Source: an uncultured Oscillospiraceae bacterium
GTDB taxonomy: Bacteria > Bacillota > Clostridia > Oscillospirales > Oscillospiraceae
DNA: 64,000 nucleotides
Direction of reading: 5' to 3'
NCBI GenBank assembly: GCA_949841355.1
Contig: CATKZP010000001.1
Coordinates: forward strand, 173,682 to 237,681
Shown: in pieces, positions 3,694 through 25,913 of the stretch
How the letters are laid out: each line of letters begins with the position of its first letter
Position numbering within the stretch: position 1 is the stretch's first letter
Notes under the pieces: generated by a model
Seen by the model: the letters and a program-made list of their open reading frames with translations, nothing else
What the model was told of the DNA's origin: nothing
Database searches by the model: none
Program-made: the position numbers and the translations under genes

Positions 3694-4016
3694 ATATTTC
3701 ACAGATCGCCGCGCTGGTGGCGGTGATGGCCGTGGTGACCTTTCTCACCCGGGCCCTGCCCTTCCTGCTGTTCGGCCGGGGCGGCGAGCCCCCCAGATTC
3801 GTGCTCTATCTGGGCCGCTTCCTGCCCCCGGCGGTCATCGCCATGCTCATCGTGTACTGCTACCGCGCCACCAGCTTTGCCAGCTTGAGCGGCTGGGCTC
3901 CCGGCCTCATCGCGGGACTGGCGGTGGTCCTTCTTCACGTCTGGAAGAAAAACAACATGCTGTCCATTGTGGGAGGGACGATTCTATATATGGTGCTGGT
4001 CCAGGTAGTGTTCTGA
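3690..4016 (+). CDS. azlD: Branched-chain amino acid exporter, AzlD subunit
   Basis: GTG start overlapping the azlC stop (GTGA); TFLTRALPF and YLGRFLPPAVIAMLIVY motifs. Confidence 0.85.
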   Translation: MNISQIAALVAVMAVVTFLTRALPFLLFGRGGEPPRFVLYLGRFLPPAVIAMLIVYCYRATSFASLSGWAPGLIAGLAVVLLHVWKKNNMLSIVGGTILYMVLVQVVF

Positions 4017-21265: not shown

Positions 21266-21601
21266 TCAAATGGTCTCACTATCTGCCGCCACACCAAGCT
21301 CCAACAGGGTGATGCGGTATTCGTGGTCTACGGTCAGGCCGTCAATGTCTGCCGAAAGGTCGTGGGCCGCAGCGACCATCGGGCCGGCGTCCGTTTCCTC
21401 CAGCATGACGATATCCAGCACCCCCATACCCTCCGGGGACTCTCGGCCCAGCAGGCGGTAGGGCGTCCCTTCAAAAGCAATGCCCGAAGCCTCCGGCTCC
21501 GGGCACAGGTTGTAGCAGCCGTTCTCGGCCTGCTTGATGTAAGTGGGGGTCTCGGTCATGCCGATGCGTTCCCCATTACTGGTTCGTGTGATTGTGAACA
21601 T
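21266..21601 (-). CDS. Hypothetical tail-fibre-associated protein (XkdW-like position)
   Basis: RBS GGAGGTG; C-terminal EYRITLLELG coiled-coil motif; precedes the XkdX-like gene. Confidence 0.55.
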   Translation of the reverse strand: MFTITRTSNGERIGMTETPTYIKQAENGCYNLCPEPEASGIAFEGTPYRLLGRESPEGMGVLDIVMLEETDAGPMVAAAHDLSADIDGLTVDHEYRITLLELGVAADSETI

Positions 21602-22734
21602 TTTGCACCTCCAAAAAAGATAGCATGGTAGAGCCGCCGTAGGCGAAGCAGGCGGCCATGGTCATTGAAATTGCGGTAGTAGGCGCTCTGGCATTCCATG
21701 TACTGCTCCACGTCTTTCAGGGGACGCTTGCCCGCCTTGAACTCCCGATAGAACAGCTTCAGCTTCCGCCTGGCTCGCTTTACACCGTCCCGACTGCCGT
21801 TGACCTTGATTTTCCCGGTTTCCGTCAGGGTAAACCGGGCTTTGCAGAATCGGAAGGGCTTTGTGAGGGGGATGATCTGGCACTTACGCTTGTTGACACG
21901 GATGCCCATAGCTTCAAAGCGCCGAACCAGCTCCCGCGCAAATTCCTTCAGGTTTTCAACGTCGGGCAGGATAGCCCAATAATCATCCGCATAGTGGCCG
22001 AAGCAATGGACGCCCATCTGACATTTGGCCCAATTATCTACGGCACTGGGCAGCGACATCATCTCCAGCTGGCTCGGCTCCACACCAAGCGGCATCCCAC
22101 GTCCCGGTATGGGGGTAGGGGCGTTCTGAACGATAGTATCGGGCACCAATCGTAAATCAGGGTTGGGAATCAGGCGCTGGTGCCGCTGATAGATTTCGGT
22201 CTGCGGCGCCCATGGGAAAAATTTCTTTAGGTCCAGCAGCATAATGGCACCTGCCCGTCCATAGTGCCGGAAGTGCCAGTGTAGATGGTTCTTGAGCCGA
22301 TCAAATTGCCAGTGGAGCCCCTTTCCCTTTTGACTGGCACCGTTGTCGTAGATCATGCTGGGGCCATACAAGGGAACCAGCACCTCATTACAGAGAGTCT
22401 TGTGGATCTGCCGGTCGGTGATGTGGGGTGCGTCAATGGGGCGCACCTTGCCACGTTCGCGCAGGGTAAAATGGACACACTTTTTGGATTTCCACGTTCC
22501 GTCCAGAATCATTCGCCGCCTACTGGCGGTACCGGAAAACAGGTGGGATTCAAAGTTCTGGACGCTCTGTTTCCACCGGACGCCGTTGCAGCACTTCCGG
22601 CCATGAAAGAACATCTTCCGGTAGCTATACACTTTGCCAATGGGGCCGAGGGCGGCGCATCTGGCCTCTCTCTTTGCCTGCCGCTTTGCCTTGCGGCGTT
22701 GATACCGCGCCTCCCGGCGCTCCGAACTTGTCAT
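21556..22734 (-). CDS. DGR reverse transcriptase
   Basis: HITDRQIHK, LDLKKFF, GMPLGVEPSQ (SQ signature), HYADD catalytic motif, basic C-terminus. Confidence 0.93.
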   Translation of the reverse strand: MTSSERREARYQRRKAKRQAKREARCAALGPIGKVYSYRKMFFHGRKCCNGVRWKQSVQNFESHLFSGTASRRRMILDGTWKSKKCVHFTLRERGKVRPIDAPHITDRQIHKTLCNEVLVPLYGPSMIYDNGASQKGKGLHWQFDRLKNHLHWHFRHYGRAGAIMLLDLKKFFPWAPQTEIYQRHQRLIPNPDLRLVPDTIVQNAPTPIPGRGMPLGVEPSQLEMMSLPSAVDNWAKCQMGVHCFGHYADDYWAILPDVENLKEFARELVRRFEAMGIRVNKRKCQIIPLTKPFRFCKARFTLTETGKIKVNGSRDGVKRARRKLKLFYREFKAGKRPLKDVEQYMECQSAYYRNFNDHGRLLRLRRLYHAIFFGGAKCSQSHEPVMGNASA

Positions 22735-22972
22735 AAAAAAGTATTCGCCCTCCGTACAGTCGTCTTGTAGGGTGCCGTCTAAATCTGCGTTGCCCCAATA
22801 CACATGAAACGGGTTAGGCACATACCCCGCCATGCAAGAAGCGTCCGTGTAGGGGCATCAAAGGGCAGTTTTAGGGATTGGGTACCCAGGGAAGTATCTC
22901 TCCTTTTGCTAAGGTCGTCTTTCACCTGGCCAGATAAATCCAGCCTGTTACTCCATTTGACCCAGCATAGCA

Positions 22973-23100
22973 AAATCCGGGCAGCAGGCCCCCAGAGGCA
23001 TTAGCGTTGTTGTTGTTGTAGTTGCCGTCGGTGTTGACGATGCAGAAGTTATTGTTGTTGTTGTAATTAGGGGAGCGGAGCCACCACCACACCGCCGAGG
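22973..23100 (-). repeat. DGR template repeat (TR)
   Basis: 128 bp co-linear with 24054-24181; 13 AAY codons in the target frame; non-coding position between avd and RT. Confidence 0.95.
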
Positions 23101-23132
23101 GACAAATTTTCAGAGATACACCCAATTCTTGC

Positions 23133-23597
23133 TCAGGGTCTTTTCTTTTGAGCCAGGGATTTGACCGCGCCCTTTAAGAGCTCATTCTCCTTGTCAATCA
23201 GCTCCCCCAGGCTCTGCGCCATCTTGTCCAACTTCTCTGAGGCATCCTTAGCGCCGACGGTCTTCCCCTTTGAGGTGGTAAAGCACCCCTCCGGGTTTTC
23301 CATCATCACCAGGTAGCAGTGGGTCAGCCGGGAATCCAGCGCCATGAGAGAGGCCCGCGCTTCCAGGAGGTGAGCTTTCCGAAGCTCAATGCGCTGCGGG
23401 TCTGATGGGAAGATGCTGTTTGCCTTTTCAGCATGGTCAATGACCTCACCGGCCAGTTTGGCCACAGGCTCTGCAACGAGACGGGAGTATCTGGCCGACA
23501 GCCTTGTCAGAAAATTCAGCGTTTCCACATAAATCTGATGGGCCGTGTTGATAAACTCCGCCTTGCTGGTGGTGCGTTTTTGTGCGAGTACCGACAT
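23133..23597 (-). CDS. avd: Avd-like DGR accessory protein (four-helix bundle)
   Basis: 154 aa helical protein between target and TR; RYSRLVAEPVAKLAGEVIDHAEKANSIF..RIELRKAHLLEARASL; assigned mostly by position and size. Confidence 0.75.
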   Translation of the reverse strand: MSVLAQKRTTSKAEFINTAHQIYVETLNFLTRLSARYSRLVAEPVAKLAGEVIDHAEKANSIFPSDPQRIELRKAHLLEARASLMALDSRLTHCYLVMMENPEGCFTTSKGKTVGAKDASEKLDKMAQSLGELIDKENELLKGAVKSLAQKKRP

Positions 23598-23598
23598 T

Positions 23599-23787
23599 TT
23601 ACACCCCTGTTTCTGTCTCTCTGGGCTTGATGGGTCCACGCTCCCGTTCCACTTCCTCCAGATGCTTCAGCAGAACAAATTCGATGTAGTTCGTTACAGA
23701 GCGGTGTTCTTCCGTTGCCAGCGTTCCAACTTTGTTAAAGACTTCATCGGTGAGGCGCAGGGTAAACACCCGTTTTGTTGTCGCCAT
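23599..23787 (-). CDS. Arc/ribbon-helix-helix DNA-binding protein
   Basis: KRVFTLRLTDEVFNKVGTLATEEHRSVTNYIEFVL; RBS GGAGGG. Confidence 0.8.
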   Translation of the reverse strand: MATTKRVFTLRLTDEVFNKVGTLATEEHRSVTNYIEFVLLKHLEEVERERGPIKPRETETGV

Positions 23788-23818
23788 ACTTGACCCTCCA
23801 ACTGATAGGCATAAGGCT

Positions 23819-23875
23819 ATTATACGGTTGATGTTGCCCTTTGTATGCAGTCTAAAGGCAGGTAAGTGATAGCAT
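23819..23875 (-). promoter_or_regulatory. Putative promoter/operator of the RHH-avd-TR-RT unit
   Basis: TATAAT at 23824-23819; ATGCTATCA and ATGCCTATCA near-repeats flank it; no clear -35. Confidence 0.45.
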
Positions 23876-23961
23876 TTCCCGAAATTTATCGAATTTTGGT
23901 GGAAATTAACGGAGACCCAAAAATAAAAAATCGCGTCGGGCGCTTACGCGCCCTCCGTGTT

Positions 23962-24045
23962 CCGGCCCTGGCGGGCCGGTGAGCGTCCTGCCGGGAGGCC
24001 GCCCGCTTTCGCGGGCGGATCAGGCCGGGATCCTCTGCGGAGGAT
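23962..24045 (-). other. Hairpin/cruciform array 3' of VR
   Basis: Stems of 6, 8 and 7 bp with 4-nt loops CGCA, GAAA and GCCA on the minus strand. Confidence 0.7.
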
Positions 24046-25913
24046 TAGACAGCAAAGCCGGGCAGCAGGCCCCCAGAGGCATAAGCGTTGCTGTCGCCGT
24101 AGGAGCCGTCGGTGTAGACGATGCAGAAGTAACGGTTGCTGGCGTAATAAGGGGAGCGGAGCCACCACCACACCGCCGAGGCGGTGGATGTGTGTCTATA
24201 GGCAATTTTGCTATTACCAGCTTTATAATAGGCGTACTGAGCCTGAGAGTTTTTCTCAGTGTTATTTGCATAACCATCGTTACCCTGTACCTCATAGTTC
24301 GACAGGAGGAACAGGTAGTCAGTGGTTGCCGTCACATTGCCCGCTACATGGCCGGTGTTATTGCCCACGTTGTCCGTGTACTTAGTCACAGACTTCATGC
24401 AGCTCCGCAAATCAGAGGGAAGGGCCGCCATCAGACTGTTAGCCACAGGGCTGGTCGGGGTTTTGCTGTTACCCAGCAGCGTCTTCCGCATATAGCTGTC
24501 CTTCCAGCCGCCCACATTGGTGTTGCTGCTGTTCATGTGGAAATAACCGTCCCCAGAAACACCGGAGCCGTAGTTGTTGTCACACAGAGCCACCATCTTC
24601 CCGCTGATCTTGCCGATCTGGAAGTGGATGCGGTTGGCACCTTCCTTGCCGCTGTTGTGATTGAATCCCAAGATGAACGCCTGCACAGACAGATTGGAGA
24701 TACCGAAGCTGCCCACCGTACCGTTGATAGTGATGGTCTTGGTGTCTCCCACCGCCCAATAGCTGGCCCCTGTACCGGCATCCGAGACCTGTTTGATGGT
24801 GCTCCAGGAGTTGTCGTTGAGGGTGTTGGTGGGGAGGGTCACCGTCACGCTGCACGTCTTATCCGCCGGCGCAAGGTGATTGGTGCCCGCCGCCACCTTG
24901 ACGGTGATAGTTGCGCTGCCCTTGCCCTTGGCAGTCACGGTAACGTTGGAGCCCGACACGCTCACCGTGGCCACGCTGGTATTACTGGAGGTGGCGGAGA
25001 TTGTGCCATCCCCGGCCCTCGTTACACCGATAGTGCCGGACATAGCCCCTGCGTTCAGCGACAGGCTGGTCTTATTCAGCGACAGGCTACCCGCCGCCTT
25101 GGCAATGCTCCACGAGACTGTCTTGGCGGTAGTCGTACCGTCCGGCCACTGGAAGTTGGCCCCCGGCGTGAAGCTCGCGCTGTAGGTTCCGACATTGGTT
25201 GCCTTACTGGTGCCGCCGATGGTCATTTTACTGGTGTCGTATCCGGTGAACTGCCCCGTCAGTTCACCGCCCGTATAGGTCTGCGCGGCCTTTGCGGTAG
25301 GGACACTGATGACAGCCCGCTGGATCGTCCACTGAATCGTCTTTGCCGTGGTGGTGCCATCCGGCCACTTGAAGCCCTCTTTGGGTGTGACTGTGGCCTC
25401 GTAGGTTCCCACGTTCGTCCCGCTGGTGGTTCCGCCCAGCGTGAGCTTGGATGTGTCCAGCCCGTTCCATGAGGGGCTTTGTACGGCCCCCGTGTAGTAA
25501 AGCGCACCGTTCTGCGTAGGAACGATATTGATGGTGCTGTTGAGATCGGTGATGGCTTTTGCGGCATCCTCTGCCGCTTTCTGCGCATTCTCCGCAGCTG
25601 TTTTTGCCGTGCCTGCATCCCGCTTGGCCGCGTTTGCGGCATCGAGAGCGTCGGCGGCGGCCTGCCTGATCTCCCCGATGGTGCCCTCGTTGGTGGTGGC
25701 TTTTTCCAGCGCCTCGTCCGCCGTGGACTTCGCGGCGTTGGCGTTGGTATCCGCAGCATTCGCCCTCTCCAGAGCAGCGTTCGCCGTAGACTGTGCGCTG
25801 TTGGCAATATCCTGCACACCTTCTGCGGCAACTTTGGCGGCGTTCGCAATGTCAGAGACATCCCTCAGCTCTTTCGCGGTGACACCAGGGACATTCACAG
25901 TTCCAAATGCCAT
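24045..25913 (-). CDS. DGR target: tail fibre / receptor-binding protein (coiled coil, two ~73-aa repeats, Ig-like domain, DUF6273-like C-terminal domain)
   Basis: Twice-repeated TNVGTY...F.WPDGTTTAKT; SSNTSVATVS Ig motif; ends WWWLRSP...GLLPGFAV. Confidence 0.88.
   Translation of the reverse strand: MAFGTVNVPGVTAKELRDVSDIANAAKVAAEGVQDIANSAQSTANAALERANAADTNANAAKSTADEALEKATTNEGTIGEIRQAAADALDAANAAKRDAGTAKTAAENAQKAAEDAAKAITDLNSTINIVPTQNGALYYTGAVQSPSWNGLDTSKLTLGGTTSGTNVGTYEATVTPKEGFKWPDGTTTAKTIQWTIQRAVISVPTAKAAQTYTGGELTGQFTGYDTSKMTIGGTSKATNVGTYSASFTPGANFQWPDGTTTAKTVSWSIAKAAGSLSLNKTSLSLNAGAMSGTIGVTRAGDGTISATSSNTSVATVSVSGSNVTVTAKGKGSATITVKVAAGTNHLAPADKTCSVTVTLPTNTLNDNSWSTIKQVSDAGTGASYWAVGDTKTITINGTVGSFGISNLSVQAFILGFNHNSGKEGANRIHFQIGKISGKMVALCDNNYGSGVSGDGYFHMNSSNTNVGGWKDSYMRKTLLGNSKTPTSPVANSLMAALPSDLRSCMKSVTKYTDNVGNNTGHVAGNVTATTDYLFLLSNYEVQGNDGYANNTEKNSQAQYAYYKAGNSKIAYRHTSTASAVWWWLRSPYYASNRYFCIVYTDGSYGDSNAYASGGLLPGFAV
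24054..24181 (-). repeat. DGR variable repeat (VR) at the 3' end of the tail-fibre gene
   Basis: 16 mismatches to TR, all at TR adenines. Confidence 0.95.

Follow-up and report, generated by a model that had tools for sequence, protein, structure and literature searches.

A complete diversity-generating retroelement (DGR) lies within the tail and lysis region of a prophage in the 64,000-nucleotide (nt) stretch analysed here, hereafter the window (uncultured Oscillospiraceae bacterium, assembly GCA_949841355.1, contig CATKZP010000001.1, positions 173,682 to 237,681), and all of its parts, given below in window coordinates, are on the minus strand. Between its variable repeat (VR) and its accessory gene avd, this DGR carries a gene for a ribbon-helix-helix (RHH) protein of 62 amino acids (aa). 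Our preferred explanation, to which we assign a probability of roughly 0.55 from comparison of sequences, is that RHH is the first gene of an RHH-avd-TR-RT operon (TR, template repeat; RT, reverse transcriptase) and regulates its own promoter, as Arc does at Pant of phage P22 or CopG on plasmid pMV158. A facultative regulator with its operator fits best because RHH is coupled to avd, because an invariant strand in the protein is co-inherited with a block at a promoter-like element, and because the relatives of the protein are Arc-like.

Read in the direction of transcription, the cassette begins with a 622-aa tail-fibre-like target gene that ends in a DUF6273 domain (24045-25913; Pfam E=1.4e-15) and whose C-terminal part contains the VR (24181-24054). 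The RHH gene (23599-23787), an Avd-like accessory gene of 154 aa (23133-23597), the TR (22973-23100) and a 425-aa DGR reverse transcriptase (21556-22833; Pfam RVT_1 E=7.6e-11, PHROG 1423 E=1e-66) follow. The alignment of TR with VR is 128 nt long and has 16 mismatches, every one at a TR adenine, as expected of a DGR. The RHH stop codon TAA (23601-23599) is separated by one base from the avd ATG (23597-23595), and the ribosome-binding site (RBS) of avd falls inside the last RHH codons; in placing a 62-aa RHH gene between VR and avd with this single-base gap, the initial annotation of the window was right.

That the open reading frame (ORF) is a real gene is indicated by strong purifying selection, with a ratio of nonsynonymous to synonymous substitution (dN/dS) of 0.08 at a dS of ~1.5 among 19 representatives. 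Profile matches are weak yet mutually consistent: Pfam RHH_7 (E=2e-4, 22 bits against a gathering score of 27) and Pfam Arc (E=5e-3, 17 bits against 20.4) both fall below threshold, the PHROG 'Arc-like repressor' matches at E=6e-6, and a profile of the protein searched against the PDB finds HP0222 (E=2e-4) and, marginally, Arc (E=0.68). An AlphaFold2 (AF2) model with a predicted local distance difference test (pLDDT) score of 86 has an extended N-terminus followed by helices at residues 14-26 and 31-50, which is the beta-strand, helix, helix order of the RHH fold over ~45 residues, and its best Foldseek matches in the PDB are RHH proteins, including CopA-SO, AmrZ, Arc and CopG (probability 0.9-0.98, root-mean-square deviation 0.8-2.7 Å). 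On the model and profiles, the 62-aa protein is an Arc/CopG-type RHH protein and is predicted to bind DNA. Its beta-strand, K5-R-V-F-T-L-R-L12, precedes the two helices and a variable, disordered tail of 12 aa; in an alignment of 22 DGR-linked RHH sequences K5, V7, F8, T9, L10, R11 and L12 are invariant. This strand is the part that reads DNA in RHH proteins and is predicted to face DNA here as well. Within the otherwise variable C-terminal tail, E47, G51 and I53 (E-x3-G-x-I) are invariant across the clade and may make up a short motif for contacts such as those between dimers or with a partner.

The neighbouring 154-aa protein has no sequence-profile match in Pfam, NCBIfam or the PDB. Its AF2 model (pLDDT 85) consists of four long helices, and the best consistent Foldseek match in the PDB is 2gsc (probability 1.0, target-normalised template modelling score 0.82), a structure that we take to belong to PF05635, the Avd family. 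We call the protein Avd-like by its position and predicted fold only. The family comprises more than 1,300 clusters, and its PHROG, 30516, is labelled 'unknown function'. Faecalibacterium phage Taranis, which was reported to have no Avd homologue that could be found (Cornuault 2018, PMC5883640), carries the same Avd-like gene.

Across a comparison set of ~180 related loci, we defined the RHH clade by at least 68% identity. The loci with an RHH gene comprise all 16 metagenome contigs, the phages Taranis, Roos and Pioen, 67 further IMG/VR loci, one further genome of the same order and 22 species-representative genomes. In 106 of 106 loci a clade member is the gene immediately 5' of avd. Because the tblastn match to RHH stops 5-42 nt before avd in every one of these, and because the true gap, wherever it could be taken from the gene ends themselves, is 1-6 nt, the two genes must be co-transcribed. 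RHH is the promoter-proximal cistron and is coupled to the cargo gene, the arrangement that characterizes operons headed by an RHH gene. Close homologues number in the hundreds: a single RHH sequence has index entries in 2,289 blocks of the collection, and a single Avd cluster comprises 1,278 sequences. In metagenomes from the guts of humans and other animals the RHH-DGR sub-family is extremely common, and it has cultured representatives in genomes of Faecalibacterium, Dysosmobacter, Muriventricola and Pseudoflavonifractor. The next-nearest RHH homologues, at 42-45% identity, are stand-alone Arc-like genes, none of them near an RT; the closest ones outside DGRs, at 42% identity, are Arc-like repressors that Brevibacillus phages encode in their immunity region. 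Among the 29 best weaker matches (at most 45% identity) none lies within 1.5 kb of an RT or an Avd of this type, and no close RHH homologue was found in 400 other genomes of the phylum.

The gene is optional even within the family. As a general feature of DGRs it was rejected, being present at 2 of the 16 DGR-type RT loci found in 401 genomes of the order. Of 80 species-representative loci of this Avd family, 22 have it, all of them with an Avd identity of at least 72%. Among IMG/VR and metagenome loci, 95 extend far enough upstream to be judged, and 12 of these lack the gene despite Avd proteins that are 82-88% identical. On the avd tree RHH must have been gained or lost at least 3 times with good support (6 times by parsimony), and the tree includes a sister pair, one with and one without RHH, at 100% support. 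The survey of RHH genes 5' of avd that was suggested in the initial annotation therefore has a divided outcome: where RHH is found it is always with avd, but only a sub-clade carries it.

Many of the IMG/VR viral contigs (loci L020-L098) start or end 120-470 nt upstream of avd. These ends are probably assembly breaks caused by VR heterogeneity or by the TR/VR repeat, and they bias any contig-based census of the interval between VR and avd.

The second line of evidence is in the AT-rich spacer that separates a series of hairpins from the RHH ORF. When the spacers of RHH-containing loci are aligned (identities are mean pairwise values for 19 representatives), a 36-nt non-coding block stands out, AAATGCTATCACTTACCTGCCTTTAGACTGCATACA (23842-23877), with the consensus aAA.TGCTATCAcTtgaC.Gtcttt.GActGCATACA (23877-23842). 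The block ends in GCATACA at a -35 position and is a candidate RHH operator. Downstream of it is TATAAT (23819-23824), conserved as TA[TCA]AAT, the candidate -10 hexamer of a DGR-internal promoter. Identity is 80.5% in the block and 88.5% in the hexamer; by comparison, third codon positions of RHH reach 47%, the leader 46% and the flank upstream 28%. The block remains ~80% identical where synonymous sites are saturated (dS ~1.5). In the resulting element, GCATACA-N17-TAnAAT (23848-23819), the 17-nt spacing is invariant, and the hexamer lies 29-32 nt before the RHH start codon, which in the window is preceded by the RBS GGAGGG (23799-23794). The block is present in 73 of 73 loci with RHH and in 0 of 12 without, a co-occurrence of the kind expected of a regulator and its operator. 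It holds a tandem pair of TTGACnG-like sequences 11 bp apart, a geometry that would suit two RHH dimers and makes the pair a candidate binding site. The sequence TGCTATCAC also lies within 23790-23900, alongside the two TTGACnG-like sites and GCATACA. The fold of the leader RNA is no better than that of shuffled sequences (z = -1.2).

The initial annotation had looked for the operator elsewhere, in two near-repeats, ATGCTATCA (23875-23867) and ATGCCTATCA (23803-23812), that flank the TATAAT at 23824-23819. The hexamer and both repeats are present in the window sequence, the first repeat as part of the 36-nt block and the second in the leader between the -10 and the RBS. As an operator, the pair was rejected. 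The downstream copy is not conserved: some lineages retain part of it in the form of 'TATGCC', incompletely, and the Taranis-like and L035-like lineages lack it. Moreover, a direct repeat matching at 8 of 9 positions arises in 51% of shuffles of the 143-nt spacer, so that the repeat pair is not beyond chance. The conserved element is the 36-nt block.

A similarity of the block to the operator of the omega repressor of pSM19035 is offered as a lead only: TATCACT in the invariant part of the block presumably fits the omega heptad WATCACW, and T9-x-R11 of the RHH strand would be the counterpart of omega Thr29-x-Arg31. Omega needs at least 2-4 contiguous heptads (PMC9499535); by comparison, there is one exact heptad here, and the two proteins have no detectable sequence relationship.

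The twelve loci without RHH are sister cassettes. These (L026, L028, L034, L037, L038, L040, L067, L071, L085 (about 3829-4001) and L022-L024) all have TGCTATA[CA]T directly before the avd RBS, where the block would be. In 9 of the 12, with a spacer of ~170 nt, a TTGGCT-like -35 is found 17 nt upstream of it, giving an extended -10 promoter of the form TTGGCT-N17 ending in TGC-TATACT. The other three, L022-L024, have a longer spacer of ~260 nt containing TGCTATAAT and only a weak -35. The forms with and without RHH thus differ by a replaced segment, not by a simple deletion. Because close relatives lacking RHH have a clear extended -10 promoter in the same place, it seems general in the clade that avd-TR-RT has an internal promoter. 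In more distant members of the family (Avd identity 62-68%), the gap between target gene and avd is 57-130 nt without RHH in 26 of 38 loci, and a short-gap example that was inspected has no promoter-like spacer; in these, avd is probably read through from the target gene, as in the DGR of phage BPP-1. The distribution fits RHH and its promoter being a derived insertion.

Adenine mutagenesis looks equal with and without RHH, which indicates that RHH is not core machinery: mismatches between TR and VR have a median of 15, 96% of them at A, in loci with RHH (n=73), and a median of 15.5, 97% at A, in loci without (n=62), a count that is a saturating, historical measure and cannot reveal differences in rate. 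The module is dispensable for A-mutagenesis, and RHH is not needed for retrohoming. The sister cassettes are, in effect, natural 'minus-regulator' controls.

This bears on the proposal that RHH is a mechanistic accessory of the DGR, binding DNA beside VR, or binding Avd, and so tethering the complex of RT, Avd and TR-RNA near the target for retrohoming in cis. The position of the block, ~170-200 nt 3' of VR and its hairpins, would be convenient for such a tether, and the invariance of G51 and I53 in a variable tail could be read the same way. The proposal also gains a little from two database proteins of 218 aa, P0215 and P0216, that are independent in-frame fusions of RHH and Avd, one having E and the other Q in place of the RHH stop codon (…PKGVELKMSVL…, …PKGVQLKMSVL…). 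These fusions occur in a lineage that has both genes in one frame, 6 nt apart, where fusion arises trivially; they are singletons on short contigs (1,375 and 901 nt) in a family of more than 1,300 Avd clusters, and either rare natural read-through or sequencing error may account for them. Given further that sister cassettes without RHH show the same adenine-specific diversification of VR, and that the module has been gained or lost at least 3 times, we regard a mechanistic role as quite improbable. To our knowledge, BPP-1-type DGRs need no RHH-like factor.

An autoregulated operon would work as follows. A transcript of RHH, avd, TR and RT would start at the internal promoter GCATACA-N17-TATAAT (23848-23819), which would lie beyond the hairpin and T-run found after the tail-fibre target gene. 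RHH dimers would most likely bind the invariant 36-nt block (23877-23842), which abuts or overlaps this promoter, with the TTGACnG-like pair at 11-bp spacing as the candidate site. Such binding would feed back on the synthesis of RHH itself and could keep the amounts of Avd, TR-RNA and RT fixed whatever the read-through from the late operon and the copy number of the phage, by the same logic as Arc at Pant or CopG at the copG-repB promoter. RHH and the block would then be a facultative regulatory module outside the retrohoming machinery, which sister cassettes replace with a plain, constitutive-looking extended -10 promoter while apparently diversifying their VR equally well. A more specific version of this idea, which we consider possible with the odds somewhat against it, is that RHH and the block act as a plug-in module that sets the dose of Avd, TR-RNA and RT, and hence the mutation rate of the receptor-binding tip, and that lineages flip between regulated and unregulated states by cassette swap.

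Several observations weigh against an autoregulated operon, beginning with the insensitivity of the mismatch counts to rate. Descent from a single shared indel could account for part of the co-occurrence of the block with RHH. There is no clear insulation, and no clear terminator after RT, at the 3' limit of the RHH-avd-TR-RT unit, and the operon may continue into downstream genes. An ORF of 111 aa (21601-21266, minus strand, family not assigned) starts 46 nt before the RT stop and overlaps the end of RT, as a CBM_5_12 protein does in relatives; a weak terminator-like hairpin of 12 bp (21506-21480) lies inside this ORF, and lysis genes follow downstream of RT on the same strand. The inference in the initial annotation, that RHH-avd-TR-RT is a separate, autoregulated unit whose mutagenic activity could be switched independently of the late operon, for example in the lysogen, is supported in part: the coupling to avd, the hairpin with its T-run and the promoter-like element speak for a separate unit, its 3' end does not, and autoregulation and any activity in the lysogen are presumptive. 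The promoter itself is also in question. A strict scan for the sigma-70 consensus found no promoter in 22800-24300, so the promoter call rests on comparative conservation only; TATAAT has no TG extension and no consensus -35, CATACA matching at 3 of 6 positions. There is also another candidate -10, TGC-TATCAC (23874-23866), whose homologue serves as the promoter-like element in the loci without RHH, and if it is the true -10 the geometry of the operator changes, the sites then being at +1. With TATAAT as the -10, the tandem sites would instead lie at about -38 to -57, a placement more typical of an activator than of a repressor.

It is on this last point that a positive role for RHH must be considered, in which a promoter with a weak -35 needs RHH bound at about -38 to -57 and the DGR becomes a bistable, on/off system. 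The -35 position is occupied by a sequence, GCATACA, that is conserved and yet non-consensus, with the tandem TTGACnG-like sites immediately upstream, and the cassettes without RHH need, and have, a far better stand-alone promoter. Some RHH proteins work in both directions; AmrZ, for example, is reported to be activator as well as repressor (PMC3325190). Most RHH proteins encoded first in operons of mobile elements repress, however (Arc, CopG, antitoxins, the Arc of IS605 elements), and if TGC-TATCAC is the true -10 the sites at +1 would be in a repressor position. We consider activation unlikely, and repression the better guess for the proposed operon.

Another alternative is that RHH serves the phage and has avd-TR-RT as mere neighbours. 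P22 immI, with arc and mnt, lies in the late region beside the tailspike gene, and RHH might similarly be a late-region regulator, acting as a roadblock or insulator against read-through from the fibre gene into the fibre-accessory and lysis genes, or acting on other phage or host promoters. The DGR is indeed embedded between tail-fibre and lysis genes on one strand, the ORF after RT overlaps the RT end, and the nearest RHH homologues are Arc-like proteins of immunity regions. Three findings make this improbable: no second copy of the block, which would have indicated a regulon, was found in the 64-kb window at up to 3 mismatches; the RHH clade is never found apart from avd, to which it is tightly coupled (106 of 106); and sister phages without RHH keep the same downstream genes.

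Finally, a small RHH protein translationally coupled to the next gene recalls the antitoxins of type II toxin-antitoxin systems, and RHH could be a partner that neutralizes harmful downstream proteins. Many of the Foldseek matches are antitoxins, and there are a weak NCBIfam RelB-like antitoxin match (E=2e-4, 21 bits against a cut-off of 50) and a PHROG HicB-like match. These matches cover only the generic RHH domain. We found neither of the two features that define such systems, an adjacent toxin and a toxin-binding extension: the neighbour is an Avd-like four-helix bundle without a match to any toxin family, and not a known toxin, and the RHH tail of 12 aa is variable and disordered, unlike tails that bind toxins. 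Because cassettes without RHH but with 82-88% identical Avd proteins are common, Avd is evidently tolerated without RHH, and an antitoxin function appears very improbable.

Among known systems, the DGR of BPP-1 (mtd-avd-TR-brt) resembles that of the window in that its target gene has a C-terminal VR followed by a GC hairpin whose loop is 4 nt long; the two also share a small accessory gene with a helical product, TR, RT and adenine-specific changes. The window DGR adds to this plan the RHH gene, the conserved cis block and the promoter-like element; BPP-1 presumably has no DNA-binding gene between mtd and avd. The two differ also in that the Avd-like protein of the window is not detectable by Pfam and in that its target protein is of the DUF6273 type, not Mtd. 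An identical layout is found in the Faecalibacterium phages FP_Taranis (NC_047914), Roos and Pioen, which carry the same DGR family in cultured hosts: a DUF6273 target, a spacer of ~214 nt, a 61-aa RHH protein (81% identical), a 152-aa Avd-like gene 6 nt later, and RT. The automatic RefSeq annotation labels Taranis gp69 an 'Arc-like repressor'; the papers on these three phages do not discuss the RHH gene, and a 2024 paper on Faecalibacterium prophages makes no mention of RHH, avd or accessory genes (PMC11792537).

With P22 Arc at Pant and CopG at copG-repB of pMV158, the window gene shares its small size, its RHH fold, its place at the head of a mobile-element operon and its tight coupling to the next gene. 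Both models repress their own promoter and so cap the amount of the downstream product, which is what we would predict here by analogy. The sequence relation to Arc is marginal (the profile match at E=0.68 given above), and the cargo here is a retroelement, not an antirepressor or a Rep protein. A further parallel is offered by the Arc proteins of IS605-family elements, optional RHH accessory genes of a selfish or diversifying element, which have been shown experimentally to bind the element's own intergenic promoter and to repress its enzymes (bioRxiv 10.64898/2026.09.24.754181). The authors of that paper suggest that Arc homologues restrain neighbouring machinery in many contexts; the element class that they studied is a different one (TnpA/TnpB), and the paper does not deal with DGRs, retroelements or reverse transcriptases (bioRxiv 10.64898/2026.09.24.754181).

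How DGR mutagenesis is switched or dosed is largely unknown, and the papers we found treat the cassette as target, avd, TR and RT, without a regulator; no paper in the library that we could search links DGRs with RHH, Arc, CopG or any dedicated regulator. The RHH gene itself is already in the databases. What is new is a DGR sub-family with an optional, dedicated DNA-binding module, most likely a regulator to judge from its sequence and context, which, if it is one, would be the first dedicated transcription factor of a DGR. Because the module is present in the cultivable phages Taranis, Roos and Pioen, the long-open question of DGR regulation would then be directly testable, and a defined protein, a 36-nt element and natural pairs with and without them provide a clean experimental handle. 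The module could also serve as a compact control part in engineered systems for DGR-based diversification. Should RHH do no more than buffer expression, it is a modest addition to DGR biology.

The region between VR and the spacer contains four GC hairpins after the VR stop codon (23938-24045, minus strand), the second with a GAAA loop and the last with a GTAA loop. The former, CCGCCCGC-GAAA-GCGGGCGG (23999-24018), just 3' of VR, is a perfect 8-bp inverted repeat that folds in the minimum free energy structure; its position is conserved in relatives and its stem varies. It is comparable to the BPP-1 hairpin and is a candidate for the DGR target-recognition hairpin or cruciform. The last hairpin, GGGCGC-GTAA-GCGCCC (23953-23938), is followed after 7 nt by a T-run (23930-23919). 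Its stem varies by lineage and stays complementary (GGCGGC/GCCGCC, CCGGCGC/GCGCCGG, GGGTGC/GCACCC), and across lineages the T-run lies 4-8 nt beyond it, which is not a textbook terminator; a strict terminator scan does not call it because the T-run is 7 nt from the stem. The terminator-like hairpin and T-run (23919-23953 together) would stop transcription of the target gene or attenuate it.

A conserved Cys-rich ORF of ~80-118 aa is found in three distant DGRs of the same order, immediately 5' of a canonical-looking avd that it overlaps (L135:4058-4366, L136:1501-1740 and L139:4002-4358, oriented with RT on the plus strand). Its product has no Pfam match and shares the motifs A(K/E)ELSCIIG…E(S/T)PC…C… and, near the end, …RC…; judging from its position, it is another small accessory gene in the same slot.

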